A DNA stretch of 20,000 nucleotides from Asterionella formosa (GCA_002256025.1 NKIB01012477.1:57910-77909); one strand, 5' to 3'; counted from the first letter of the stretch, positions 2,056-19,800 are shown. The notes: generated by a model from the letters alone, not told the origin. Numbers and translations are program-made.

Positions 2056-2821
2056 TTTCGCAACAAGTGTTGGCTGCAAAGGTGAAAAGCATGAAGAAAG
2101 TGAGACGACATGTATTTTGGGCAAAATGTAAAAAACCTGATGGACAAAATAGTTTGAGGCGACAGGGACACTCTTGACGTCATCAATAGGAAGTGTGCCT
2201 AAAAGTAGTTCCGGGGAGTGTGATGAATCGAATCAACGATCTGATGAATACCAACACGGCAGTAATAGCTCTGGATGTTTGGCGCTGGAACTGCATGTCT
2301 CCTGGACGAGAAGCGGGTCTATGATTCAAGTATTAAGCACTCGCAGAGCCTCACAGGGGGTCCACTGCAACGGCAACTCGCTAACGGTCGTCACTTCGTC
2401 AAACGCTATATCGGAGGTAACATCATTTTCCGTCAATGCAGATTTCTTCCCGTATGTAGAAATGTACTAATTCCTATTTTTAACCAACCCGGACGACCAA
2501 AATCTCAACTATCGTCAACGACGCTATCTTGGAATGTCAACCCGAACGATTCCGGACGCAATGTCGCTCTTTCTTTTCACGAAACGCTTCAGTACAGTCA
2601 AGCCAGAGTCTGTAGCGACTTTCAGCTCTCCAATCGATCCGCACCCTCCGCTAGACCACTTCGGCTTACCACTTGAGTGCAAAATTCAACAATTTCCGTG
2701 AATGACTTGCAGCACCGCCTTTCGGAATGCTCTGTGCGCGTTTCCAGTTGCGCGTTGGCTCACGAGTAACTGTGGACTCACCTCGCCAGATACTAACTAT
2801 GGCTGCACCGATGGTAACTGA

Positions 2822-2978
2822 TACCAGTAACAGGTACCTGGTTCTGCTTACAGGATCTTACGTCCTGTACATTATATAAAGATATATTTATATATATATA
2901 CCGGTATAAAGCATTTATGTTGCACAAGGTACCAGTACCATGGTACCACATACCTGGTATACCACTACCTGGTACCAC
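2822..2978. repeat. Cluster of TA-flanked short (quasi-)palindromes plus a (TA)n tract in the divergent SIN3/Nudix intergenic region
   Basis: TACCAGTA 2822, (TA)n ~2882-2900, TACCGGTA 2899, TACCAGTA 2930, TACCATGGTA 2936, TACCTGGTA 2951 and 2966. Confidence 0.8.
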
Positions 2979-3023
2979 ATGACATGTGTGATTTATAGAA
3001 ACAAAAACACTGTTTGGTTTTGG

Positions 3024-3100
3024 TCGACGGTTCGACGGTTCGACGGTTAGCACTGGCCTTTTTATATACCGGTATGTAGCACCGGACTCACAGCCAATCA
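3024..3100 (+). promoter_or_regulatory. Putative promoter elements: (TCGACGGT)x3 and a CCAAT box upstream of the Nudix gene
   Basis: Perfect 8-bp direct repeat at 3024, 3032 and 3040. AGCCAATCA at 3092-3100, about 90 bp upstream of ATG 3187. Function is inferred from position only. Confidence 0.3.
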
Positions 3101-3186
3101 CAATAATTTATATAATTGAATCAAAGACAAAAAGTGCTCAAAGGACAGATCCTGTCTGGGACCAGAAGAAGCTTGCTTTCCGTTCC

Positions 3187-4288
3187 ATGGCACAACGTAG
3201 GAGGCGATGTCACCTTCCATGTGTGGCCACCGGTCTTGTCTGTGTGATTCTGACCGGTTAGTTCTATAGAAGCGAAGTCATTAGAACACCAAGGGCGGGA
3301 ATATCAAACGGGAGTATTATCATGTTCACTCACACACATGTCATCCTTTTCGTTCCAACCCAGCGCTCATTTATTACATTCAAGGACGATCGCTGACAAC
3401 CGAAGATCATCTCAAAAAGCTACGAGATAGCGGCGCCCATTTTGGTGTCAGCACAGGGCACTATAAAGGAGAAACATGGAAGAACAGAAACACGCTTGCC
3501 ACCACTTTGTTAGGCGAGACACCATTTGCTCGTTGCGATATGCACTCCGTATTACTGGAGGATGGAAAGACAATAATAAACGATTGGATATTCATGGTAC
3601 GTGATATCAATGATGAAGACTGAACATGAACAGATTCTTTCTCTTCAGCAAATGCCCTCATGCTTCCCGTCCAATTGATTTCTAGGAGGAACGGGATGCC
3701 GTCAATGTTGCGGTTCGAACAAAGGAAGGCGAATGGCTAGTCTTTGAAACTAACAAATACGCCATTCCGGGAAAGACTTTAAGTCCAGTGGGAGGATTCA
3801 TCAATGATGGAGAAACGCCCTGGGAAGCTGCCCGACGAGAAGTTTGGGAAGAGTTAGGTGTTGGTTCTGAGATTAGCAAACGAGAAATGGGTGAGGGACA
3901 GAACCTACTGAAATCCAAGGAATCGAAAGAAAACCCTTTTGGGACCAAGAACGGAATCAATGTACCTATTGATGAACATGGACTTGCCAAAGGTGATACC
4001 CCAGGGATAGAATCTGATTGGATTTTTCTCGGACGATATAGGACTATGGCCAATCGAGGGGGCGGCTTTCTCTACGCATACTTTCTGAAGAACGCTGTTA
4101 CTTTAGCCAATGAAGACGATGGATCCGTAGCTGGCAATCCAAACGGAGACGTTGAATCGCAGGAATTAATTAAGTTGACCAACGTAAAACTGAGGGAAGC
4201 TATTGAAAACGGGGACTTTCAAGAGGTGAAGTGGGCATTGACATTGAGTTTAGCACTGCAACGTGTTGAGTCCGTGAACGAGGAATAA
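3187..4288 (+). CDS. Nudix hydrolase (ADP-ribose pyrophosphatase-like) with N-terminal signal anchor; exons 3187-3256, 3364-3596, 3686-4288 (301 aa)
   Basis: Canonical Nudix box GFINDGETPWEAARREVWEELGV (Gx5Ex7REUxEExGU). Introns 3257-3363 (GTTAGT...CTCAC...CAG) and 3597-3685 (GTACGT...TAG) splice in frame. N-terminus is MAQRRRRCHLPCVATGLVCVILTALIYYIQ. Confidence 0.88.
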
Positions 4289-4726
4289 CAAAATTCAATA
4301 GCGCCAACCTGGTTATTCCCATTTTCATACATTTCGATTCCTTCCACAGAAGTTACGAACCGGCCACAACCTTGAACCCAATGTTTGTACCGGCAGCTTT
4401 GAAAGCAGGAACGCGAACGCCTTCCTTTTCTCCGGAGCGCAGTCCTTCTAAAACATAAGTAATTCGAGACATTGAAATGTTATTCGTCGTTAATCATAAT
4501 TGTTTCAACTCCCTAAAAAGACCGTCCCACCTGTATCGATCTGACAACGTGCAATTGAACCTGTTTTCTAGGAAGCCGATCTTGTATTTCAATGACTATC
4601 ACCCAGTCCTGAAAATCTGTTGCTTTGAATCCAAGATATTCAAGAGAATTCAGCAGTCTCAAATCAGTATGAACGCATATCACCGATACGTCAGTCATGA
4701 GCGAGAAAATACTCATCCCTACAAGC

Positions 4727-5386
4727 TTAACATCTTTGTCCAAAAATCTTGATTTGCCATAACGAAACACCCCATCCCATGGCACTGGTCCTTATCAATA
4801 TCCGAAATTGTCGAAGCTTCTTACTTTCCCCTAAAATTTCGATGGCATGAATGACATGAAGAGGGATTTTGCTTTTCACTCCAGAAGATTGGCCTGCCTC
4901 CGACTTCGTCCGTCGACTGCTGTCGACTTTTGAATCAAACATGGGTATGTATTCCTCAAATTCGTGTATTCTACCTTCGAGTCTATAGTCGTCGCTGTAA
5001 GCCGCCTCCCAATCCAATATAACAGTCGAAACGGTGACATAACTGGAAAAGTCAAGTCGTACCCAATGAGTTCCTTTAATGGCAGTCCCATGTAAATCAC
5101 TTGCAGCTTGCCATCGATCCTTGATCCAATCTGTGCCATTATTCAGCATGGTTTCGGGTGGTCCCAGATTACCTCGAACGTCTGCAGTAATGATGATGCT
5201 GGATGGATCATCTGTAAGCAGTGAAATAGGATGAGGATCATCGAGTCCGCGTGGATCGTCATTATTGAGATGTGATGGCTTTACGACGTAGTACAATAAC
5301 AGAATACTGCCAATCAGAGACATGAATGGTATCAGCGATAACATCCAGTGGTGTAGGCTTTTCCGGGGCCGTTTGATCCTCGTCAT
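4727..5386 (-). CDS. F5/8 type C (discoidin / CBM32-like galactose-binding fold) protein with N-terminal membrane anchor
   Basis: 219-aa ORF with a basic N-terminus plus hydrophobic helix (WMLSLIPFMSLIGSILLLYYVV). Motifs RWQAA...HWVRLDF...VSTVILDWEAAYSDDYRLEG...RQFRILI...WGVSLWQIKIFG match the F5/8C pattern. Confidence 0.8.
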   Translation of the reverse strand: MTRIKRPRKSLHHWMLSLIPFMSLIGSILLLYYVVKPSHLNNDDPRGLDDPHPISLLTDDPSSIIITADVRGNLGPPETMLNNGTDWIKDRWQAASDLHGTAIKGTHWVRLDFSSYVTVSTVILDWEAAYSDDYRLEGRIHEFEEYIPMFDSKVDSSRRTKSEAGQSSGVKSKIPLHVIHAIEILGESKKLRQFRILIRTSAMGWGVSLWQIKIFGQRC

Positions 5387-6633
5387 GATAGTTCGTCCGC
5401 TATGATCTCCATCATGTTAAAGTTGAACATCAGCAACTGGATATCAACCGTTGTAAAGTTTACTTTTGGTTATTTCTGGATTCGAGTGAAGTTTATCAAG
5501 TTTTTTTTCTAGGCAGAGCATCCCCACCGCATCCAACCAAATTCCAAAGCAAAAAACCCACTTATCAAAACACGTCACTTGGTCGAGAAATATTTATCAA
5601 TATACCGGTACCTGAGCTGGTTTACCTACTCTCTGAAATTGCGTAGATTCTACATATTGTTGGTATGTCCAAACTTCTTATTCACAACCTGAATTTTAGG
5701 TCAAACCGACACCTGCAAAATCTTCAGTACAGCCAGTACAAAATGTTCACACGAGGATGACTTCTACCACGGGCGGACCACACCCAACCATACCTAATAC
5801 AGAAAGAACTGATAATGATGCGTTTGAAGGCGGAGCAGACGACAAAAATATTGTTACTTAGTACGATGTACTCTATCAGGTACCTGTAGGTACTAGTACT
5901 CACTATCACTTCATTTCAACCTCAACCAAATGATAGAATGTAGATGAAATGATTCATGAATATTTAAAAGCTAGCAATAAGTAGTCTCAGTGCTACAAGT
6001 TCATCTGTTGACAATTGCTGACAACAATCAATAATGGCATCATTAGCTATTGCTTGCTTCTTCTGACAGATGCTTGAACCAACTTCCCCCATTCATTTCA
6101 ATAGCTAGCAATTCATTTGAATCAAAGTTTCAAATTCAGAATGTTGATTATAAAATTATAGGCTAAAGTGAATGTATCCATGCGACTAGCTGGTGGTATG
6201 AGTAATCTTTCACAATGAGAGCTTACCTATATGCGCTTCCACTGTGAAGCCCTTTGTTGAGGAGTCAATTAATAACAACCTCATGGAGTTCAATCTTCAC
6301 TTATATAATTCAAAGAATCATGTTCTTTGTTATTTTGTGTGCATGTTTATCTAGCCGACCTGATTTGTCAGCTTGCAACAAATGGTGGACTCTTGGTGAC
6401 AAATATACATGTTGACAGAGAATCCTCAACTAAGCTTCTTGGATGTAGTATTCATTCAAAAATCAAAATGTGCTGGAGTTACAAACATTAAAATTGATTA
6501 TTATTAGACAAATAAATTGGAAGGAAGGTGCTAACAAGAAGAGCATGGTGGTTAATCGATGATTGCTGGCAATCAATTGTACTTGAATTTGGCAGAATTG
6601 ACGAAAACAATGGATTCAGATTCTATACTAGCT

Positions 6634-7430
6634 ATGGTAAACAGAATTGATCAGACAACTACATGATCAAACTAACATTAACACGGCTGTAACTTCTATT
6701 TTTGAACAATCTGTTTTAAAAACCACATGCCACACATGAAACGAGCTGTCAGAATGGTAGCTGGCTTTACCAACATGCCACCGAGCAATGCAATATACAA
6801 TAACGGTCACACAAAGTTCACTTTTTACAATTTTGCTGAAGAGCTAGCAAGTATATCAGAGAATGGTAAACATGGTAGCTGGCTTTACCAACATGCCACC
6901 GAGAAATGCAATATACAATAACGGTCACACAAAGTTCACTTTTTACAATTTTGCTGAAGAGCTAGCAAGTATATCAGAGAATGGTAAACAGAATTGATCA
7001 GACAACTACATAATCAAACTAACATTAACACGGCTGTAGCTAACTTCAATTTGTGAACAGTCTGCTTTAAAAACCACATGCCACACATGAAACGAGCTGT
7101 CAGAATGGTAGCTGGCTTTACCAACATGCCACCGAGCAAGAATGCAACATACAATAACACAAATTTCACTTACAATTTTGCTGAAGAGCCAGCAAGTATA
7201 TCATAGAATCGTAGACAGAATTGATCAGACAACTACATAATCAAACTAACATTAACACGGCTGTAACTTCTATTTGTGAACAGTCTGCTTTAAAAACCAC
7301 ATGCCACACATGAAACAAGCTGTCAGAATGGTAGCTGGCTTTACCAACATGCCACCGAGCAATGCAACATACAATAAGACAAAGTTCACTTACAATTTTG
7401 CTGAAGAGCTAGCAAGTATGATATCATAGA
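6634..7430. repeat. Tandem array of a ~228-bp unit (3 full copies plus a 118-bp partial duplication)
   Basis: Units begin near 6634, 6981 and 7208 (..ACAGAATTGATCAGACAACTACAT..). Segment 6754-6871 is repeated at 6872-6989. Confidence 0.95.
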
Positions 7431-7652
7431 TTGAATACCGGTAGGACTTTGGTGAATTGATTTGATTAGCCATGATTGTCGCTTTATACTGTAGAAATGA
7501 GGACAAAGGTGAACTGTGGCAAAATGTAGACTGATCATATGTTTTCGCAATTTTGAATGTTTTTCTTGATTGTGACAAGGACGATGAAAGTTCATTCCGA
7601 CAAAATTCTTTCCTACAATCATGGCATATCATACATAAATTCTTATTTGGTA

Positions 7653-8484
7653 CTCCCTCCATCCGGAAACAGTTGCATCGATTTTTCAAATTTATCCGGG
7701 GCATTTTGACTCCTACGATTTTCTCCGGCTCAATTGCCCTAGTACTGTGCGGCTTTCTCTAAGCTGCAGATCCATGTACCTATAAATGTAGTAAATTTAA
7801 AATTGGCAAGACCTACATATCAAAAAACCGTTTTGGGCTTTTTCGATTTTCACTTATTGCTGCTATCACGAGCAAAATGGAAATGGATGAGGGCCCATTT
7901 TTCTTTGAACCATCTATTCTCAAAATACGTTTAATGTACGATATCAAAACAGAACAACTGCAGCTTGTGTTCAATTATGGAATGCGCAACCCTGAAAGTG
8001 TCGATGATGGATAGGATGATAACGACGGAAGCTATGCTCGTTTTGAGGATTGTAACTGTTAAATATCCGGCAGTATTGTCCAAGTAGGTGCAACAACCAT
8101 AGAAAGTATGTCGAACCACAATTATTCTATTCATATTTTAATTATTATAGTGGCTTGTAGTATTCGGTTTCCCGCAAATATTTGAATGGCCAGTCGATAT
8201 AAAACAGCATTCGGCGATACCGGTATGTACATGTACGTAATTAATGTATATTTGCTAAATTGGTTTTGAATAATTTATTTAGATGCTAAATATTTAATTA
8301 CATAAACAGAGCATATGCTCACGTCTATGTAACTCATATGAAACACATTTTTTCGAATAAGCCGATCCTCACGTAGATTGGTATGTTGGCTCCGTAATCC
8401 TTCATATGCGAACAGTAAAGACACAGGGGGTTGGTGCCAGCAAATCGATGCTAGCTACCTGGTACTGTTACTGGACGGAGGGAG
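7653..8484. mobile_element. Non-autonomous Tc1/mariner (Stowaway-like) element, 832 bp, TA target duplication
   Basis: Left end TA|CTCCCTCCATCCGGAAACAGTTGCATCGATTT (7653-7684). Right end AAATCGATGC[TAGCTACCTGG]TACTGTTACTGGACGGAGGGAG|TA (8442-8484). The outer 21 bp match 18/21, the inner 10 bp match exactly, and the interior is AT-rich and non-coding. Confidence 0.85.
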
Positions 8485-8866
8485 TACTCCATACTCCATA
8501 TGTACAACAACCCCTATGCATACCGGTATTATTATCAATCTCCCAGTATAATACCAGTTGATCAATCTACCTGTCCGGCATTGTACTTATGTGTAGCAGA
8601 GGAACCATCATACCAGCAAGTTGCGGTAATAGTGCTGGAACTAAAGGTTTAGCTATCTTTATCCGATATCAAATTGTTTATTTAAGCAAAATGACAGCAA
8701 CTTGCAGGTAGAGTACCAGGTACTGGTACCGATAATATGCGAGGATATTAGCTTAACTTTCCCTGGATTGAAAACCGTCTTCTAACTCATCGTCCTCACC
8801 TTGTTTGCGTTTCGACAATTGCCTCCCTTCTCGTTTCATACTTGAAAAAACACACACAACAACACC

Positions 8867-9982
8867 ATGAGCTCAACCACCACACTCAAGGACCCCACAC
8901 CTTCCTTTGGCGACCCGTATGACATTCTCCACGTATTGCCGAGTGCGACGAATGCCGAAATCACCAAGGCGTATCGCAAGCTGGCGCTGCAGCTCCACCC
9001 CGACAAGCAGTCGGGGAAATCCGAGAATGCCAAGGCCGACGTGAACAAGGAATTCCACAAGTTACAACAAGCGAGGAACTTTCTGTTGGAAGCCGAATTT
9101 TCAGATCAGAAAAGGATCTACGATCAACAGCGAGAATCGAACAGACGGCGACAACAAGATACTCAGAAACGAGAAGCATCCATGAGCGAAAGGCGCAAGG
9201 CAATGCGAGACGAGTTGAAACGAAAAGAAGAATTAAGCAACATAGACAAAGGCGCTGTCAATAGAAACATACGGAGGAATCAAAGACAAGAGGAAGAAGT
9301 GATGAATAATCTCCGCAAGGAAGGGACGAGAAGGAGACAAGAATATGCAGAAAGAACTTCGTCTGCTGCTGATATAGATCTGTCGCGCAAGAGGCGCCTG
9401 GACGAGAAGGCTTTGTTGGAGGCTCGCCAAGTTAGACTCAAATGGAGTCGCAAGCGTTTGTCTAAATCACCTTCGGAACATTCATTAGCTGAAATTTTGG
9501 AGAAATTCGGTACCATTGAAGGGGTTGAGCTGATTGGAGGCAAAGGGAACGCAGCCTTGATTACTTTTTCAAATCCCACAAGTTGCAAACAGTGTGTAGA
9601 TTTTTACCGTTTCTCGGAGGAAATGAGAGCGTCTTATGTAGGAAAGCGAAAGGAAGATCAGGACGAAGTGGATGAGCACGAGGAGGTTCCCACTGTGACA
9701 TCGAATCGCGATGGTGAAAACTTGCGAGAGCGACAAGCTAGGCAGCTTGCCGAACGGGAGAAAATCTTGCGAGAGATGGAGGAGAATGATGAGGGCCTCG
9801 CAGGCAAACGTGCTGATATTACAGTACCATTGCGGGAAAAAAGTAAAAACAATTTTCCTCTACAGTTTCCGGCAAATAGGGATTTTCATGCACTTTCAAC
9901 ACCACTGGAAAAGTTACAACATATGGAGCGGCTCGTTTTTGGTGACTCAACAGTCCAAGCATGGGAAAATGCAGTCCATTAA
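8867..9982 (+). CDS. DNAJC17: DnaJ homolog subfamily C member 17 / spliceosomal Cwc23 (J-domain + coiled coil + RRM)
   Basis: J-domain DPYDIL...ITKAYRKLALQLHPDK, a charged coil (MSERRKAMRDELKRKE) and an RRM (VRLKW...SEHSLAEILEKFGTIEGVEL...NAALITF). Intronless, 371 aa. Confidence 0.88.
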   Translation: MSSTTTLKDPTPSFGDPYDILHVLPSATNAEITKAYRKLALQLHPDKQSGKSENAKADVNKEFHKLQQARNFLLEAEFSDQKRIYDQQRESNRRRQQDTQKREASMSERRKAMRDELKRKEELSNIDKGAVNRNIRRNQRQEEEVMNNLRKEGTRRRQEYAERTSSAADIDLSRKRRLDEKALLEARQVRLKWSRKRLSKSPSEHSLAEILEKFGTIEGVELIGGKGNAALITFSNPTSCKQCVDFYRFSEEMRASYVGKRKEDQDEVDEHEEVPTVTSNRDGENLRERQARQLAEREKILREMEENDEGLAGKRADITVPLREKSKNNFPLQFPANRDFHALSTPLEKLQHMERLVFGDSTVQAWENAVH

Positions 9983-10344
9983 CATATTCTGAATAAAGAG
10001 CTAAACTATTTTTGGGCTCCCATGAAGATAACACCAGGGATGTGGTCACGTTTTATGCATTATTAAAAGTCACGCAACACTAAACATATCAGCGAATGCC
10101 CCAATACAGGTCCTTTCGGGTCTCATCATGGATACGACAGCTTGCAGCTAAGAAGTCACGAAAATAGGGATTCAGTACATGACTTCCATATTGAAACTAG
10201 CTACCGATAGATGATGCAATATTCACGCTTGGTCGCAATCTCGTTTGCCATGCCACTTGGAGAAGTAATGATGACAAAATGTCAGTGTTTGCGTTCAGAC
10301 TCCTATATTCACTAGCTCTATTTCAAAGGCTACACCTGGTTCAT

Positions 10345-11121
10345 CTAGTATGATTGTCTGACTTCCTCTTCAATCCACTCAATCCTCAAGCCACTCAACA
10401 TGAAATGACGTTGCAATCTCTGTACAATCTCCAGGCGCACACTTTTCAAACTTGCACTTGCTCCTCCCATTTTCAAATTAACAGTTGGGGCCACGCTTCC
10501 CTCTCCTGTAATGCTGTGAATATCGATAGACCCACCCGCAACTTGCAAAAAGGGCCGGACACCGTCCAAGACGACATTTATCTGGTCTTCATTAAGATCT
10601 GGCCCCTCCGGCATTTTCTGCACCACCTCTGATATTTCAGGGATGCGTTCCTTGAGGCCACGTTCCAAGCCCATTTTCATGGTTTGCGTGCTAGACGGGC
10701 ATGTTCCACAGGCACCCTAATAGATAAAAATTCGATACAATATACGGTTTTTCAGATATGAGTCACATGCACACACGGATACGCAACGAGCCTTCACAGA
10801 ACAACGGACCTGGAGTTCCAGTCTCACAACGGGCCCATCAATTTCAGTAATTTTTACATTACCACCGTCCTGAATCAAAAAGTGCCGCATGCCATCCAAT
10901 ACAAGTTCTACATTTTCCCACGTGAGCGGAAGAGGACCTTGGTCGACATCCTGTACTTTCGGAGGAAGGTCCACGTCTGAATCGACGTCAAACGGCGAAA
11001 TGATGGTGGTGTCTTCTGCGAATAGTACAGTTCGAATTCCTAAGCGAGGACTGGACGGGCGGAACGCATCTGCGCTGCTGAGCGAAAGGGCAGCGGCGGC
11101 GAGAGAACAGATATGGATCAT
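10345..11121 (-). CDS. NFU: Plastid NifU-like Fe-S cluster carrier (NFU); exons 11121-10810 and 10716-10345 (227 aa)
   Basis: Signal peptide [19 protein letters not shown] followed by F-RPSS (ASAFAP-type plastid motif). The 93-bp GT-AG intron 10809-10717 joins VVRLELQ to [16 protein letters not shown] (CxxC). The second NifU domain ([16 protein letters not shown]) lacks CxxC, as in plastid-type NFUs. Confidence 0.93.
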
Positions 11122-11251
11122 TGGCTCGAGGGTCGTAATAATGTAATAATTGGCGGGTGGAGAATCTAAGCTGCACAGCGGAAGGAAGGAAAACGATTGT
11201 CGAATTGAATGAAGGCGATCCTCAGGACCACGTGGTATGCCTTGTTGTATG

Positions 11252-11566
11252 GACCAGGTACCGGGGCACCTGGACCCTGGTACCAGGGTACGGAGTACGG
11301 GAAGTAACTTTCTCATTATTCTTTGCTGGTAATAATCATCTATAATTCCTGACGTATTTGTCACCCTTCATGTACCAACAGCATGTCCCGGTATACCGAT
11401 AGTTAATTAAGAACGGTACGTGGTACTCTATCTGGGACCAGTACCTCGTATTTCTCCATTTGCGACCACCCACTGGCCCAGCAACGTGTGCAGCAGTTTG
11501 CTATACCTGGCGGTGGTAACTGGTACATCATTGAATCGATGACTACCAGGTACCAGGGTACCAGTA
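11252..11566. repeat. Second cluster of TA-flanked CCAG/CCWGG units, upstream of NFU
   Basis: CCAGGTACCGGGG near 11253, CCCTGGTACCAGGGTA 11275-11290, and TACCAGGTACCAGGGTACCAGTA 11544-11566. Confidence 0.75.
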
Positions 11567-12021
11567 ATAAAAATGCATGGATGACAAATATATAGCTACT
11601 GCCACTGCCTCTCATGAAAAGCATGCTCCGATAATTCTCTGGCTAATACTAGTCCCTCCTGTGAATTTTTTCTGAAAAAAATTGTGTATATAACGAGCAT
11701 TGCCACTGCATCGACAAATTACCATGCCAATTGAAGTTGCGGATCATTACACATCATGATGCCTGATGTTAGTCGAAAAAGCAAAAAAAATTTAGCTACT
11801 GGATTGACCAAAACCAAATATGATTTGGTCTTGGCCAAGAATGAACCCCTTATCAACCAAATATCAGGTATTTGGTCAATTAGATTCTGACTGTAGCATT
11901 GTAACATAAATTGTTGTAGGCATAACACCAAAATATGTGTTTGTGTTGAACAAAATCTTCTGCAGTAAGAAATAACAATGTAATATTTAAAATATGTATT
12001 TTAATGTATTACTACATATAA

Positions 12022-12470
12022 TTTCCCGGAGAAAAGCCCAGCAGTCCAACACACAAGATGTGCAACCTATGGGCGAAAACGGCGATCTCACAGTGCTGTA
12101 GAGTCACGGAAGGAAAATGGCATGTAAGAAACCAGGCGCTATACAAAGAGCAGAATAATCTAAAATCACAATCCAAATACAACGAAAAAATTAAAGACAT
12201 ATTATCAACTCAATGGGGAAATCTCACGAAGAGATGAGCATCATTTTGGCACCACTCAGGAGGATTTTTAAAAATAACGAGTGGGAGGAAAGAGCCGAAT
12301 ACTTATTTGCGGCTTCAAAATAAGGGGCGGAAAAAGATCAAAAATCAATACGCTTCTACTATCACTCATCAATAACGAAACCAATCGAGAAACAGCAACA
12401 AGGAGTGGGGACACACAGAAATTCTTTCATTCAATCAACACTCGCTACCCAATTCTCCGGCTTACATAAA
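12022..12470 (+). mobile_element. Probable degenerate 3' fragment of a non-LTR (LINE) retrotransposon ORF2
   Basis: Frame 12022-12237 reads ...LWAKTAISQCCRVTEGKWHVRNQALYKE..., resembling the W-x-x-RN motif at the C-terminus of L1/Tx1-type ORF2 proteins. It is then broken by stops and frameshifts. Recognised from the motif only. Confidence 0.4.
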
Positions 12471-14569
12471 CAAAGTGCAGTCAAAGGGAACCGATTCAAG
12501 ATCAACACTACCACAATTTTTTAAAACCTCTACTTCTGCATGAGGAAGTGACTACCCACTTTTGGTGTGATTTTGATAATTGCATGAGACTTCTTTGATA
12601 GAAATGCAGAGCCTGCAACAACTTTCTTACCCATTGCACTGTAAACAGCGGTTTCAATTTGGTCATGTATAAATGACCAAATAACGAAAATATAAATCTA
12701 GGTTCTCGAACCACCTGCAAGACAAGTTTTATTAATGGACCTGGCTACAAGTACCGATGGCAAACCTTCTTACAATACTCTAGCACAAGGGAGTGACCAC
12801 CACCCTTAATCTCTCGCTCTACCGCCCCCCACCACATTTTCTGATCCATGGAGCGCAATGAATATAATCCGGTAGCTAAGCTAGCCCAGTACTAATACGC
12901 TATAAATATTATTGATATAATATACTGTAGTGAACAAGAGAAAACAAAACAAACGCATAGATATGAAAATTCAACTGCTAAAAATTATAGTAAAATACTT
13001 ATGTCAGATAAGTGATCTAAAATAATTCTAGTATCTGAGCGCAATGACGATATTATATATCAAACCAAAGAACATTTGTGATTGATAATTTTGGCACAAA
13101 TTCATTTCGTTTCGAAGCGCGCCCAATACAGTTTCTAAGTATTCTAGGAATAGGTGGACCTCCTGACCTCAATTTTTTCACGTTTTTTGCATAATCATGC
13201 CCCTTGAAAATGTTTGCTCCCCCTCTCATTGAAAAGAGAAAATAGATTTGACAACAGAAAAGCGACAATACATCGTATATTGCGTGTTTCACCACCTCAA
13301 AAGGGAGGCTGATGAGACTGTCGACAAGTGTTGCAACTATACTGAAACAGAAGGGGGACATATCATGGAGCCTTTTCTTTTACCGGGTATAAGTACAAGG
13401 GTAGAGTCTACACATACAAATATAAGCAACCACATCGGTGTATGCATGTACTGGCGACTTCACACCATCTTTCACAATGAAAAGGTCTTGCTCATTGGTG
13501 TGTCTACAAGCAAACTGGATTCAATCCAATGCCTTACATCAAGTTTTGACCTGCTTTTTATGAGGAGGATGCTACTTCTATAAAATTACTGAACAAATTC
13601 CAAGACCTTGAGAAATGGGAAGAGACTTTGCTCACGCCCATCCCTAATGTTTTCATTCAAAGTCTTGGCATGTTTTTGTTTGTTTCCTTGCATCCTTGCT
13701 ATCATGCCAGCCATTACCAGAACTTCATAGCTAACTGACCTTCAATGACAATACCCTTCTAATCATTTAACAATGGCGTTATTTGATGAAATAGCTACCA
13801 CCAAGAATGAAGATAAACACTTAAGATATATTAAGGATGTCAATCCATTGTTTCTCGTTCACCTATTGAAACCTCTGGGCCTGAGCGAGCATGATATCAA
13901 AATCAGTTCATACACACTTTAAAAGCTTACCAGAAAAATCATTGAGGTTAAATAAGATCTGAAATTAGTCGATACTATTCCCAATTTAAAGAACAAAGAT
14001 TAAATTTCAGGGAAATCCAAGAGTGTGGTGAATATGGTAATTCATAGGTACTCCCAGCCATGCAGCCTCCTGTCAGTACTGAAATTCTACAATATTGGAA
14101 TTTGTAATGGGCCATAAACGCTCCTATAATTTGAAAAATATACATGGCAATATATAATGTAGACTCATAATTGGCGGATGAGAAAGCAAAAATCGACCTA
14201 TAGGAAGTAGGGGGGGGGGGTAAATGTATAAGTCTGTGGTTGTCTTCTTAGTAAGGTTGCATCAATGCACTTCCACAGTTCGAGGTCTACGTTTTACTAA
14301 AATATTTATATGATGGCTGTTCTTGAGTCTTCTGTTCAACTGGCTACCAACAAGGAAAAGGAGGAGAATTTTTGACCTGCGATCAGGCCATGGAGTTCAT
14401 GATGGTATGTTCTCTAATTACAAAAGTTGCCTCCCTGAAATAGTTGCAGTTGTGCTAATATATGAATGGAAACAATTATTTTTGGTTTTGTTTGTCTGTA
14501 CATTACAACAGGACCTTTCTTTTTGTCAGCCACTAACCCTGGCACCCTAGGGACTCATGAAAAAGACAA

Positions 14570-14638
14570 GTGAACAATGTGGGAATCGAACCAACAAGAT
14601 CACTCAGTGCTATACTAACCACTAAGCCATTCCCCCCC
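14570..14638 (-). pseudogene. Degenerate tRNA-like sequence (tRNA pseudogene or SINE head)
   Basis: The - strand has Pol III A box TGGCTTAGTGG (14629-14619) and B box GGTTCGATTCC (14592-14582), plus a T-arm GTTGG-TTCGATT-CCCAC. The anticodon arm is shortened and the acceptor stem is poor. Confidence 0.6.
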
Positions 14639-15627
14639 AATGACTACATTTTTCTGGTGTATTTGCTGGCAAAGAAAGAACAACACACATTGTAACTGAT
14701 GAATTATGACTGTCATGTTATCATGTTTGTTACTGGTATATATTTTTTATCTTTTTGTACAAACTGAACACATTCTTGTGCAGCTACCCACCATTGTAGT
14801 GATCTCACAACATTTGGTTGAGGGTCTTTTATCCTGACCATTTGCCTCCTAGTTTCTATCAAGAGCTAAATGTGTAGTGTACCCAGCTTGAACTTTGGCT
14901 AACATTGTATCCCATACAGTACTTTTTCAAAGTAAATATGGCTGCAACATTGCTTATAAAGCATATGTACAAAGATAAGAAACTCTAAACTTTGAAAAAT
15001 TGTCAGCGTAGTCATCGAGAATCAAAGTGTCAATGACAAGCAGAAGATTAGCAGTTGATGCCTGAATAATGGCCAACAATTGCTGATTGTTCTTAATTAA
15101 ATAAAAAAGGAAAGGAAATTGATCACCCCAAAAGTGTAGGCAATAAATAGCATGTGCTTGCCACCTTCTCATTATACCTAATAAAATTCCATTGTGTAGG
15201 CTTGTGATGGACCTTCAAGTAGTTACCATTACCTCCACTATTTCAAATCAGCACAGATTGAATAGATTCACTGCTGTTTGAAATTGGTGTCCCATATATT
15301 ATTAATCCTGATGGAACCACCTGATGGTAGACTTTATCAGTTTGCATGCAGTAGACAAATCCCTCACCAGTGAGTGTCCCCTTTCTCTCCTTCAGGACAT
15401 TGCCCTATTCCCCAGATAAAATCAAAACCAGCAGTCTAATAAATTGATTGAGAAAAATATTCCTGCTTTGTAGTTGCCAGCTGAAATGGTGAAATGAAAT
15501 TTCTCAGCAGCCTTGGTTATACATAAAGTCACCATATGGTTAGCTACCAATTGAATTCTTCAGGTAGCAAAATGATACATAGAAGACCTGTAGATACTCC
15601 AAAATCGTTACATCATTGTAGTTTGCA

Positions 15628-16599
15628 TTACTCATAGGTCATGAAAAGCAAATATCTAAAAACCTCATTTTCGGCGTAATCCAATGGATACTTTCCATAG
15701 CGATCTCTGAATGTCGCCACATCAGGATATTGCTCTACCAAGAACTTAATCACCTCAAGCCTTGATTTGGCACGACATGCCCAACGGAAAGGAAGACGTT
15801 CTTGAATATCCATGACCATAATGGATTCAGGATACTGCTCCACCAAGTATTGAATCACATCCAGTGAAGTATTGCCTTGACATGCATAATGTAAAGGAAG
15901 GCGTCCTTGAATATCCATGACCTTGATGGATTCAAGATAATGCTCTGCCAAGAACTGAACAACAGCTAGTGCAGCATTATACTGACATGCACAATACAAA
16001 GGAAGATTCTGACAAAGATCCCTGACCTTGATGGATTCAGGATATTGTGCCACCAAGATTTGAATCACATCCAGTTGTGCATTCCTGTTTGCACATGCAA
16101 CATGCAACATGCAAAGGAAGACATTCTTCTTCACCCCTAATCTTGATGGATTCAGGATAGTGCTCTACCAAGAACTGAATTACATCCAGTGGAGCATTGT
16201 ACTGACATGCACTACAGAAGGGGCGACGTTTTTGAATATCCATGACCTCGATGGATTCAGGATATTGCGCCACCAAGAACTGAATCACATCCAGTTGTGC
16301 ATTCTTGTCCTGACATGCATAATGCAATGGGAGACATTTTTGATTATCCCTGACCTTGATGGATTCAGGATATTGCTCCACCAAGAATTGAACCACATCC
16401 AGTTGTGGATTCTTGCTCCCACATTACAAATGCAAAGGAAGATGTCCAAATGTAGAATCCGTTAGAATCCGTGACCTTGACCAAGTCGGGGTTTCCCGCT
16501 ATGATTCGACAAATTTTTGCGTACGGGGCCATTCCTTCTTCAAGTTGTGAATATTGTATTGCACGACGCAATTCATCGTTGTCAATTCGAGACACATTA
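15628..16599 (-). pseudogene. Ankyrin-repeat protein pseudogene (about 7-8 repeats of 35-36 aa), 5' end interrupted by the copia LTR
   Basis: Repeated LPLHYAC...LDVIQFLVEQYPESIKVRD units spaced 105-108 bp. Lesions: 10-bp tandem duplication (16453-16472), in-frame TAA (16426-16424) and an extra 7-bp ACATGCA unit (16093-16113). The coding frame runs directly into the LTR at 16600. Confidence 0.9.
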
Positions 16600-16809
16600 T
16601 GTTGGAGGTTGTAAAGACTCTGGGTGACGTTGAGAGTCTGATGAGTCAAGTCGTGAAATGTTTCATGGGACTGACAGTGGGATCAAAATTAGTTGGAGTA
16701 GAAGTCTTGAATTGTATTTTGCAAGATTGATAGTTTAGATATAATTACAATTAGTTCACAATCTGAGAAACCTTGACTTGAGTAAGGTAGTCTTTGGAGC
16801 CCTTCAACA
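16600..16809 (+). repeat. 5' LTR (210 bp) of a Ty1/copia retrotransposon
   Basis: Bounded by TGTTGGAGG...CCTTCAACA (8/9 inverted match, TG...CA). It is followed by a PBS-like sequence and the gag ATG at 16886. The second LTR lies outside the window. Confidence 0.75.
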
Positions 16810-16825
16810 TACTTCGAAGTATAAA

Positions 16826-16839
16826 GGTTAGGAACCAGA
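16826..16839 (+). other. Putative primer-binding site complementary to the anticodon arm of a half tRNA-Arg(CCU)
   Basis: GGTTAGGAACCAGA is the reverse complement of TCTGG-TTCCTAA-CC. This is the same register as the copia/Ty5 half-tRNAiMet PBS GGTTATGGGCCCAG. Confidence 0.55.
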
Positions 16840-16885
16840 GGCTGATTGTCGGTGAAAGAAAGAAAACAAAAGTTTGTAAGTCACA

Positions 16886-19800
16886 ATGGATGGATCCAAG
16901 GATAGTGACAAGATGAGTGTGAGACTTCCAATGTTTGATGTAGACCACAAGAAATTTCAAATGTGGAATACTCGATTTAGAGCATTTGCCACTGTTAGCA
17001 GATTTGCTGAGGCATTAGCTCCACATGCTATGATGCCAGCAAGAGAAGATGAGTTGATTGATGAAACAACTGATGATGGCAGGTTGAAAGCATCGGCCAT
17101 CAGGAGAAATGGTGTAGCTATGGCTAATTTGTCAATGGCTTTCACATCGGAAGGAACAATGGGATTGGTGTACAAGGCGATGACTCCAGAGTGGCCAGGT
17201 GGGCTTGCTTATTTGGTAATGTAAGCTCTGAACAAGAAGTATCGACCTCAAGACACAATTACAAGAGTTGAGCTCAGGCAGGAGCTCAATAAAGTGGCCA
17301 TGATGAAAAACCAAGAACCTGCTACATTGTTTGAGCAAGTGAGTAGTATTGAGAATCAATACAATGCTTCAGGGGTCAAGATAGATGAAGGTGATTTGAT
17401 TGCTGTCATACTTGATGCAGCACCAGAAGAATACCATGCAGTACTTACATCGGAACAGAAACTTCGCGGTGATAAGCTAACTTTAAATGATTCAGAGACT
17501 GCGATGAATCAATTCTGGAGACAAGGGAAAACCCCAAAGACTAATGATGGCAATGATGCTGCTGAAATATCATTGAGTGCATTTGGAGGTGTTTGCTATA
17601 ATTGCAAGAAAAAGGGACATAAAGCCAATAAGTGTCCACCAGATAAAGAGCATAAAGATGGAAAAGGAACAAGACCTAAAGGAAATGGTGATAAAGTTCA
17701 ATGGAAAATGTAACAACTGTGGAAAAGGTGGGCACAAAGAAGCAAATTGTTGGGAGAAGGAAGAAAATAAACATAAAAGGCCAGAGGGTTTTAAGTCCAG
17801 AAGTGCAGAAACTGCAGCATCGGCAGTTGATAATGGATCAAGAGTTGAATTTCTATTGTGTGGAATGACATTTCCTACTGACCAAGCAATATTGATGGAT
17901 CCAAATGTGTGGATTGCAGATACTGCTGCAACAGTCCACAATACTCCACACATGGATGGTATGACCAATTTACGTGATGCAGAAAAGTCAGACGCTATCA
18001 CAATGGGCAATGGGATAAGTGAAAAAGCTGTTAAGATAGCAAAAGTTAATGGTGTCATATGTGACATGCATGGAGTTGAAATTGCCAAAGCAACCATTCA
18101 AGATGTGACTTTGTTGCCTACGGGCAAATACAATTTATTCAGTTTGACAAAAATGATGAAAAAGGGATGGAAATTAAGTGGTCATGATGATGCAATTGTG
18201 TTGACAATGAATGATAAAACAATAACATTTGACATCAAAATTCCAACTCCAAAGGGTCTGTTGTATGCCATGTACATGAAGAGGTTGGTGACAGAAGTTG
18301 CTGGTGCAGGTGCAGATTGTGGTGCCAAATTATCTATTAGAGAAATACACGATAAACTTGGACATGTAAATGAAGATATGGCAAGGAAGACAGCCAAAGC
18401 TATTGGCTGGAACTTGACTGTAGGTGGCATGAGACCATGTGAAGCATGCGCTGCAGGTAAGGCAAAGCAAAAGAATGTTCCCAAGGAAAGTGAACATGAA
18501 GAAGCAAAAGAAAACAATGAACGAATTTATTTGGACATTGCAACAGTGAAAAGACAGGACAATGACAATTATAAAGGCATGAAAGTAACTCGAGCAAATT
18601 GGAGAATTATGGTAGATGAAAGGACTCAAATGAAATTCACAGATTTTTTTGAGACAAAGAATGGAATGGTTGAACCAATGTGTGAGCAGCTGTTTAAATG
18701 GAAGGCAAGTGGAATACCAGTGAAGTTCATAAGGCTCGAAAATTCAGGAGAGAACCAACTGCTTAAGATTCGTGCAGAAAGCAGTGATTGGAAGTTAAAT
18801 GTGCAGTTTGGATTTACAGGAAGAGCCACTCCGCAACGTAACCATTTGGCTGAGTTGGATTTTGCAGTAATTGCAAACCGTGGTCGTGCTATGATGCACA
18901 GAGCAAATGTACCATTGGCTGATAGGTACAAACTGTTCAAAGAAGCATTTAAAACAGCAACATTGTTGGACGGTTTAGTTGTAATAACAAATGATGGAAA
19001 AGAAGCAACAAGATATGAACATTGGTGTGGCAAGAACCCAGATTTTACTGCACATTTGAGGGTGTGGGGAGAAGCTGGAACAGTCACTATTAAATCAAAT
19101 ATGAACAAAAAGGTGAAAGACAGAGGTGTACATTGTATGATGGTGGGATACGCTCTGAACCATGCTGGAGATGCATACAGAATGTGGGACAAAAATACAA
19201 ATCGAGTGCATGAAACACGAGATATCATTTGGTTGCGCCGAATGTATTTTGAGAAGCCAATCATCAATCAGGATCTGGCAATGGCACCTGTGATTGATGA
19301 TGATTATGAAGTTGAAAAAGAACCTACCATTAAAGTTGGGGAGGGATTAGATGAAAATGACGAGCAAGAAGACCAGCTAGCTACCACAAGATGATGATAA
19401 TGACACTGGTGGTGAAGTAGCTGAAAGTCCGAATACAGAAACACAAGTGGTGACAAGGACTGGAAGGCGCATTAAAAATCCATCAAGATTGATTGAAGAA
19501 ATGGGTGCTTTTGTAAGCGACTATCAGATTTGTTTGACTGATGCAGAAGTGAAATATTATGAAGCAATGAAAGAATTAGAAGAAGTTCAACATGAATTTG
19601 GATTTGTAGGTGCTGGACTTGGTGGTGGATTTGAAAACACAGCAGAACTACATGTGATGAAATATGATGCAGCAATGAAGACAAAGGATGCGGCTGCATG
19701 GAAAGTTGCTGTAGATGAAGAACATGATCGTATGATGAACAATAATGTTTGGAAACCTATTGACAGAGCAAAGATTCCAAGTAATTCAAAAGTACTGACT

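Follow-up and report, generated by a model that had tools for sequence, protein, structure and literature searches.

We have analysed a 20,000-nucleotide stretch of the genome of the diatom Asterionella formosa (GCA_002256025.1, NKIB01012477.1:57910-77909; G000:C12477:57910-77909 in our numbering), hereafter the window, which belongs to a 68.4-Mb assembly of 15,436 contigs. The window is rich in short words made of a few letters enclosed by two TAs, which an earlier note on this DNA had read as stacked excision footprints of Tc1/mariner-like transposons. The words are far above chance, but two processes are mixed among them. Class I, comprising the cores CCGG, CCWGG, CCAG and CCAGGG between TAs, very probably consists of excision scars of pogo-type transposons. 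Class II, in which two bases appear twice with G, C, GC or no letter in between, is likewise real. Overall, we consider it likely that pogo scars and dinucleotide-doubling scars together account for the signal.

In the window, the positions listed in the earlier note for TACCGGTA and TACCWGGTA were all right (6/6 and 5/5, respectively), with 0.16 and 0.17 occurrences expected from an order-2 Markov model. The 14 listed TAGCTA were also correct and one more, at 17115, had been overlooked (15 in total, 2.8 expected). With an order-4 background, TACCGGTA was still enriched in the window (0.55 expected), whereas TAGCTA became unremarkable (11.0 expected). Of the TACCGGTA copies, all described earlier as non-coding, the one at 7436..7443 falls in a predicted 104-aa minus-strand open reading frame (ORF). 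Words of the Tc1 and Sleeping Beauty type, with which the motifs had been compared, showed no excess there (TACATGTA, 1 vs 0.52 expected; TACAGTA and TACTGTA, 2 each vs 1.34).

The same words abound beyond the window. Non-coding DNA of three contigs, 123,455 bases in all, contained TACCGGTA 66 times (1.4 expected), TACCWGGTA 67 times (1.5 expected), TACCAGTA/TACTGGTA 53 times (6.4 expected) and TAGCTA 74 times (25 expected), with TACCGGTA being the top 8-mer after C runs. Further counts were made on 17 contigs (611,458 bases, window included) chosen for repeat hits and hence non-random, which held 266 TACCGGTA, 227 TACCWGGTA and 153 TACCAGTA/TACTGGTA. Their 366 kb of non-coding DNA, to which the core counts below refer, contained 244 TACCGGTA and 209 TACCWGGTA, against 4.6 and 4.5 expected. 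Class I words made up 1.09% of the non-coding bases; extrapolated from these non-random contigs, the genome total would be ~70,000. Word density was about 8 times lower in long ORFs (0.82 vs 6.66 per 10 kb).

The fragmentation of the assembly could suggest an assembly or sequencing artefact. This reading is refuted by independent contigs from four public runs of three studies, where the same stacks were found beside a small miniature inverted-repeat transposable element (MITE), one such stack running through the cores CCGG, GC, G and CCTGG. The depletion of the words in ORFs and the excess of their one-mismatch neighbours, a pattern expected of old decaying words, equally contradict an artefact, to which we attach practically no credence.

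Class I words depended strictly on TA. When counted on both strands, XY-CCGG-XY occurred 488 times vs 9.2 expected at XY=TA, the other 15 dinucleotides being near expectation, and XY-CCAGG-XY (209 vs 4.5) and XY-CCAG-XY (145 vs 19.6) were enriched essentially only at TA. The CCGT-type cores CCGG, CCG and CCGGG were observed 244, 72 and 15 times (4.6, 34.8 and 1.6 expected), and the CCAG-type cores CCWGG, CCAG, CCAGGG and CCATGG 209, 145, 25 and 4 times (4.5, 19.6, 0.8 and 0.9 expected), respectively. The core CCA was below expectation (72 vs 90.7). The enrichment of CCAGGG, together with the lack of CCA enrichment, suggests a 4-nt rather than a 3-nt overhang for the CCAG ends.

We have then polarised insertions by comparing repeat copies. 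An all-against-all comparison of 118 sequences (886,930 bases; eight loci omitted as duplicates or overlaps, and three as the window's own) yielded 750 gap events, of which 161 were polarised as gains (157 unique); the long allele was in the majority in 225 and the remainder, unpolarised, was not used. Gains of CC cores come from a separate, looser recount of repeat copies, which gave 23 class I gains (15 CCGG, 3 CCWGG, 2 CCAG/CTGG, 2 of CCGGG type and 1 CCG), two of them probably representing one shared event. The majority short allele was a plain TA in 20 of the 23 cases, so the proposed change of TA into TA-X-TA was borne out for the CC cores.

The main polarising repeat was a Stowaway-like MITE with CTCCCTC ends, located at 7653..8484 of the window and flanked by a TA duplication (7651-7652 and 8485-8486). 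It has 626 candidate copies genome-wide, and 28 of 30 aligned copies were used after two near-duplicates had been dropped. TACCGG and TACCTGG were gained in copies of this MITE at TAs without the core in their flanks. The window copy shows a gain of TA-CCGG-TA from TA at 8218..8225 (24 short and no long alleles among the other copies, 20/24 being plain TA). The chains of words described in the earlier note are present as written, but some of their links are not gains. In the chain at 8218-8239 only TACCGG is new, TG-TA-CATG-TA being ancestral, since TATGTACATGTA stands in the consensus of the MITE family; the CA, TG and CATG links were rejected as footprints on this ground. At 8452..8464, a stacked TA-GC-TA-CCTGG-TA, combining a class II and a class I word, was indeed gained as 11 bases, but the family consensus there is AA and not TA.

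These gains bear on two explanations that involve no transposon excision. Replication slippage, i.e., tandem duplication, with local template switching would be consistent with the palindromic nature of many words and with 61 of the 157 unique polarised gains being formally tandem duplications, among them that at 19378. For class I it is largely refuted by the non-templated gains, as CCGG and CCWGG arise without the core in either flank. Neighbouring units in arrays carried the same W in 23 and a different W in 24 of 47 pairs, a mixture pointing to independent events, unlike slippage, and the three-base tandem gains contained C or G in 37/38 cases despite a 60% AT background, which slippage does not predict. 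We judge it very improbable. We regard with the same scepticism the idea that selection maintains the words as binding sites for proteins in promoters. Palindromic, non-coding words could be so understood, the more so as their density is about 3 times higher in unique non-coding DNA (9.1 per 10 kb) than in its repeated part (3.1 per 10 kb), but complete 6-7-base units were gained in single transposon copies, one class I gain even falling inside the terminal inverted repeat of a copy (L014), and the extrapolated word places number tens of thousands.

Elements that could have left class I scars reside in the genome. A DDE_1 profile search returned 93 matches, which is a lower bound on the number of elements. 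TA-flanked elements with CCGT and CCAG ends that match the CC cores were found, as had been anticipated; the two bases outside the TA were excluded from every element search pattern. Family A has TA-CCGTAAAACC ends (CCGT) and a length of ~2.45 kb; nine copies are 99.4-100% identical and one holds an uninterrupted 416-aa ORF with D..D35D spacing. Families B and C have TA-CCGTATAC and TA-CAGTG ends, respectively. Empty paralogous sites with one TA were seen for families A, B and C and for the Stowaway-like MITE. The CCGT-ended families display inverted ends, a TA duplication and DDE_1 matches above the cut-off, as pogo elements do. A family B end was also found at a TA within a Stowaway-like MITE (C5930:14287, L140), where 14 other listed copies are empty.

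The CCAG ends belong to family P2, with TA-CCAGT(A/T)AAAAACTG ends (230 matches of the end pattern, none of the control). Its copies are MITEs of 0.3-1.1 kb and two long frameshifted copies of 3.4-3.5 kb with inverted ends and TA on both sides, and a P2 ORF fragment was nearest to HTH_Tnp_Tc5/DDE_1 clusters (0.91-0.92), making the family pogo-like by its features. The attribution to IS630-Tc1-mariner elements stands as far as pogo-type DDE_1 elements are concerned, but the genome gave no DDE_3 match and no Transposase_1 match, the control of the latter search being blank too; no Tc1- or mariner-proper source was thus found. CT- and CA-ended families flanked by TA, also postulated in the earlier note, exist in the form of the Stowaway-like MITE and the CAGTG family, but the cores expected from them were weakly or not enriched (CTC, 45 vs 44.5; CTAG, 26 vs 6.9; CAG, 117 vs 84; CATG, 22 vs 16.9). 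The CA/TG core (611 vs 390) was confounded by TA-rich repeats.

The DNA next to the TA distinguished the source families. GG preceded the TA at 24/29 P2 ends vs 1/23 ends of A and B (Fisher p=6e-9). Among the words, GG preceded 242 of 454 TACCWGGTA (53%), 38 of 60 CCAGGG-type and 80 of 306 CCAG-type words, compared with 63 of 532 TACCGGTA (11.8%) and 6.9% of all TAs. This flank preference parts the words as it parts the families, which supports the association of CCWGG words with P2 and of CCGG words with A and B. The Stowaway-like MITE also favours GG-TA (21/31).

From the enrichment, the gains, the dependence on TA, the matching ends and the target context, we infer a scheme in which excision would be the cause of class I. 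Pogo-type cut-and-paste transposons would insert at TA and duplicate it, and upon their excision 3' overhangs of a few terminal bases would remain, to be sealed by end-joining. For CCGT ends, a 3-nt overhang with self-complementary CG tips could anneal to give TA-CCGG-TA, with CCG and CCGGG as minor products. For the CCAG ends of P2, a 4-nt overhang is predicted, CCAG and CTGG pairing through three bases around an A.A mismatch in the centre to yield TA-CC(A/T)GG-TA, while CCAG/CTGG and CCAGGG would be one-sided or trimmed products. Given the preference of P2 for GG-TA-CC, each CCWGG scar formed there would leave two such sites. The scar creating two new preferred targets would explain the arrays, the scars stacking into (TACCWGG)n and attracting Stowaway-like and CWG-duplicating MITEs as well. 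Genome-wide counts gave 5,576 copies of the dimer TACCWGGTACCWGGTA and 2 of its reversed control. This excess and the mixed-W arrays supported the earlier proposal that the same sites were used repeatedly, as regards CC-core insertions.

One user of these tracts may be the 88-bp high-copy MITE at 8617..8704, with CAAGTTGC ends and 1258 candidates in the genome. It lies between two CAGs (8614-8616 and 8705-8707) and looks like an insertion into a TACCAGGTA word accompanied by a 3-bp duplication of CWG. Among 35 copies, selected for their similarity to the window copy and its flanks, CNG stood on both sides in 22 (19 direct, 3 inverted), the other 13 being unscorable; no empty site was seen for this MITE. 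We have considered it as a CCAG-ended TA element and source of CCWGG, and rejected this, as W is directly repeated on both sides; such a direct repeat makes the MITE more likely a user of the scar than its source. The TAGCTA at 8650, previously counted among the footprints, is internal sequence of this element. PHIS transposons of the NuwaI type are described as making CWG duplications, mainly in animals (PMC4482050). The 88-bp MITE resembles NuwaI, as characterised there, in its direct CWG flanks and differs in having a class I scar as its apparent target and in being known here from MITE copies alone.

Several observations weigh against attributing class I to pogo excision. The neighbouring GG/CC was present in 2/5 polarised gains of CCWGG type vs 0/18 of CCGG type; the former proportion is below the prediction from the 83% of P2 ends and makes this support weaker. 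Neither of the two long P2 copies gave fragments with a Pfam hit (2/2 without), and no empty site was found for P2 in the 0.89 Mb compared. The Stowaway-like and CAGTG families are present with little matching scar signal. In 0.89 Mb, no site was seen in all three states, i.e., empty, occupied and scarred, but only empty/occupied and empty/scarred pairs. Finally, the ~70,000 extrapolated words and the 93 DDE_1 matches are orders of magnitude apart, which requires many jumps per element and an unusually clean repair, whereas in rice species excisions are mostly unclean, with only 8/94 DNA transposon excisions reported as perfect and most others having deleted flanks or added filler (PMC4423477). 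The large surplus of words over elements and the lack of a three-state site would also suit a host or element enzyme able to add fixed CC..GG units to a TA with no complete cycle of insertion and excision, by abortive transposition or a templated transferase. As the core length variants and the flank preference each match a different resident family, ordinary excision suffices, and we hold such an enzyme to be improbable.

Excision by pogo-type elements agrees in outline with described systems. Tc1/mariner excision proceeds through 3' overhangs and end-joining, with footprints consisting of the first or last 2-4 bases of the element (PMC6943129). As in the Sleeping Beauty footprints TACAGTA/TACTGTA treated in that source, the TAs flank a mismatch-centred core of the element's terminal bases, and CCWGG would be the 4-nt analogue of CWG. 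Unlike the canonical footprints presented there, those of A. formosa are associated with pogo-type (DDE_1) elements, have CCGG and CCWGG cores and stand in stacked arrays; among 8- and 9-letter words, only C runs exceed the CCGG and CCWGG words in over-representation, and ~1.1% of non-coding bases are taken up by them. Stowaway footprints in Triticeae comprise 1-4 terminal bases within the TA duplication, and re-insertion beside an older footprint has been reported (PMC1925063). Footprints and re-insertion beside them are already known at single loci. The Triticeae case, as reported there, concerns one intron, whereas here the phenomenon is genome-wide and the scar would recreate a preferred target. 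With the rice data, as summarised in that study, our results share the small polymorphisms generated by excision scars, while the diatom scars are stereotyped (PMC4423477). In a title-level literature search, no description of either signature in a diatom was found.

Excision scars are usually read locus by locus, and here they would amount to about 1% of non-coding bases. For each family, such scars may preserve a record of overhang length, of the choice of target and of past jumps, even those after which no element remained. A CCWGG scar recreating its own target would amount to a simple feedback, able to account for tracts rich in GGTACC and for hot spots of transposon insertion. In addition, promoter motif searches in diatoms will return these words, which could be misread as binding sites.

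The second signature was recognised from TAGCTA, for which the earlier note had postulated a GC-ended, TA-targeting family. This was not supported, since XY-GC-XY was enriched 1.5-2.3-fold at 14/15 non-TA dinucleotides. The pooled enrichment at non-TA dinucleotides was 1.64 and that at TA, the most enriched, 2.8, compared with 0.94 for the unequal-flank control and 1.06 for the CG core. TAGCTA thus appears as the TA member of a general signature. Among the polarised gains consisting of a 2-bp duplication plus one base, this base was C or G in 33/34 (p=1.5e-12). Doubling of XY around nothing, C/G or GC fits 107 of 132 gains of 2-4 bp (13/18 two-base, 70/77 three-base and 24/37 four-base gains), and the four-base gains (n=37) had a GC core in 24 cases, a CG core in 2 and any other core in at most 7. 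The ratio of observed to expected class II words in non-coding DNA was 1.65 for repeats and 1.64 for unique sequence, so that we rejected a specificity for repeats; in unique ORFs it was 1.02.

The independence of class II from TA is evident in 25/34 one-base-core gains and most GC-core gains, which lie at other dinucleotides. A point to the contrary is that TA was over-represented among the one-base-core gains (9/34, p=1.5e-4), for which reason a TA-specific source may contribute. Furthermore, 13 two-base, 38 three-base and 7 four-base gains are also plain tandem duplications, which makes the unambiguous count of class II gains smaller.

Within the window, a tandem repeat provides two examples, a TA -> TA-GC-TA gain at 7037..7042, where two other window copies have a plain TA, and an AA -> AA-G-AA gain at 7138..7142, a non-TA site with plain AA in two other copies. 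The first had been polarised correctly in the earlier note. A TA -> TA-G-TA gain was found within the Stowaway-like MITE at 7740..7744 by comparison of MITE copies. At 19378..19383, the proposed 4-base gain is confirmed by its absence in 6/6 other long copies of a Copia retrotransposon, but it fits a plain tandem duplication as well as TA-GC-TA.

Class II could arise from a cut staggered by two bases, made at almost any dinucleotide with a preference for A/T-rich ones and followed by fill-in. Depending on whether a G remained at none, one or both of the 3' ends, the product would be XY-XY, XY-G-XY, XY-C-XY or XY-GC-XY, and TAGCTA and much of TACTA/TAGTA would belong here. The most likely source, at roughly even chances, is an unfound DNA transposon with G...C ends and a 2-bp duplication. 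Speaking against it, no such element was present among 159 inverted-repeat pairs or 112 nested gaps from the ~0.9 Mb mined (~1.3% of the genome). A search for CACTA elements (PF02992) gave no match, its control being blank as well. DDE_Tnp_4 gave at least 150 matches, many from G-ended elements, and those examined had TWA-like or AGT flanks. A young DDE_Tnp_4 family was rejected as the source, as its G ends are accompanied by TWA-like flanks at the one end examined. This Harbinger-like family (L191-L201) has ~40 equal-scoring copies, mostly at contig ends, and its left end GGGTCGTTC is preceded by TTA, TAA or TGA. A further 3.1-kb DDE_Tnp_4 element (L190:310-3400; G000:C12647) has GGGCGCGC ends and AGT on both sides, resembling the ANT duplication described for Pangu (PMC4482050).

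A transposon-independent origin of class II is somewhat less likely, but comes close behind. Breaks by Spo11/topoisomerase VI with a 2-nt 5' overhang would be filled in, and before joining, an X-family polymerase would extend either 3' end by a single G without a template. With G at the left, right or both 3' ends, this would generate G, C or GC and never CG, in line with the 24 GC and 2 CG cores; there is no restriction to particular dinucleotides, and insertions are as frequent in unique DNA as in repeats. No candidate element was found in the DNA mined, yet the mining reached just ~1.3% of the genome. Terminal transferases prefer G/C, but a G-biased addition by the diatom enzyme is hypothetical. 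The genome gave 2 TP6A_N and 1 PolX matches, which is weak evidence and says little, these genes being common in eukaryotes. SPO11 is described as leaving 2-nt 5' overhangs that can be end-joined, removed or filled in, and fill-in would give 2-bp duplications as in class II (PMC12918824). The passages of that source on end joining deal with deletions between double cuts, predict largely error-free joining at single breaks and do not mention a G/C core. We advance only tentatively the combined picture in which most short insertions stem from such 2-nt breaks with G added to the ends, while pogo scars amplify themselves in a loop, building GGTACC arrays and thereby directing where three transposon families land. 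A source that is neither an unfound element nor break repair has a smaller, though appreciable, chance. Accounting for the majority of the short insertions seen, class II poses a directly testable question on mutation and break repair in this alga.

The remaining class I words of the window were assigned by position and word class. A cluster in unique DNA at 2822..2974 contains TACCAGTA at 2822 and 2930, TACCGGTA at 2899, TACCATGGTA at 2936 and TACCTGGTA at 2951 and 2966. Single TACCGGTA words lie at 3067..3074, 5603..5610 and 8521..8528, in addition to the one at 7436..7443, and TACCAGGGTA and TACTGGTA at 11281..11290 and 14731..14738, respectively. The word TACCGGGTA at 13381..13389 is a minor one (CCG+GG), as judged also from the core counts. 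Two stacks are unpolarised, TA-CCAGG-TA-CTGG-TA at 8714..8728 and TA-CCAGG-TA-CCAGGG-TA-CCAG-TA at 11544..11566; all three cores of the latter are predicted by CCAG ends with a 4-nt overhang. Two stretches with scar stacks differ between the window and public contigs, by 35 gap letters at 11238-11678 (run X7) and by 15 at 2200-5702 (run X4).

In metagenomes, 16 loci related to family A were found. The ends, where visible, are CCGT too, in five loci and in one further locus near-identical to family A. In one marine metagenome contig of 1,955 bases (L203), three TACCGGTA and one TACCWGGTA lie near a gene whose product is 65% identical to the family A transposase, and the signature may, judging from this sequence, extend to another organism. 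The coding parts of Copia copies (L002-L011) contain many 3-4-base gains that fit class II, and 18 TAGCTA lie within 2,682 bases of an unrelated contig (L216).

The window carries a Copia-type retrotransposon as well as genes for Sin3, DnaJ, NifU-like and ankyrin proteins. The protein cluster nearest to its DnaJ is composed mainly of Bacillariophyta, and this DNA also occurs in algal and freshwater metagenomes, as fits a freshwater diatom. The ankyrin array (15628-16465) is built of 105-bp units, a single 115-bp spacing disrupting the frame. The stretch 3300-4288 is coding-like, with what we take to be a Nudix-box-like motif near 3810-3865, and a downstream 133-aa ORF had no Pfam hit. The tandem repeat bearing the class II gains at 7037 and 7138 spans 6634-7420 and is irregular, with units of 110-220 bp. 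Further high-copy repeats, as judged by contig depth, lie at 5350-6140 and 11650-12050. On another contig (L098:150-2750; G000:C14516), a long near-perfect inverted duplication has arms of several hundred bases.

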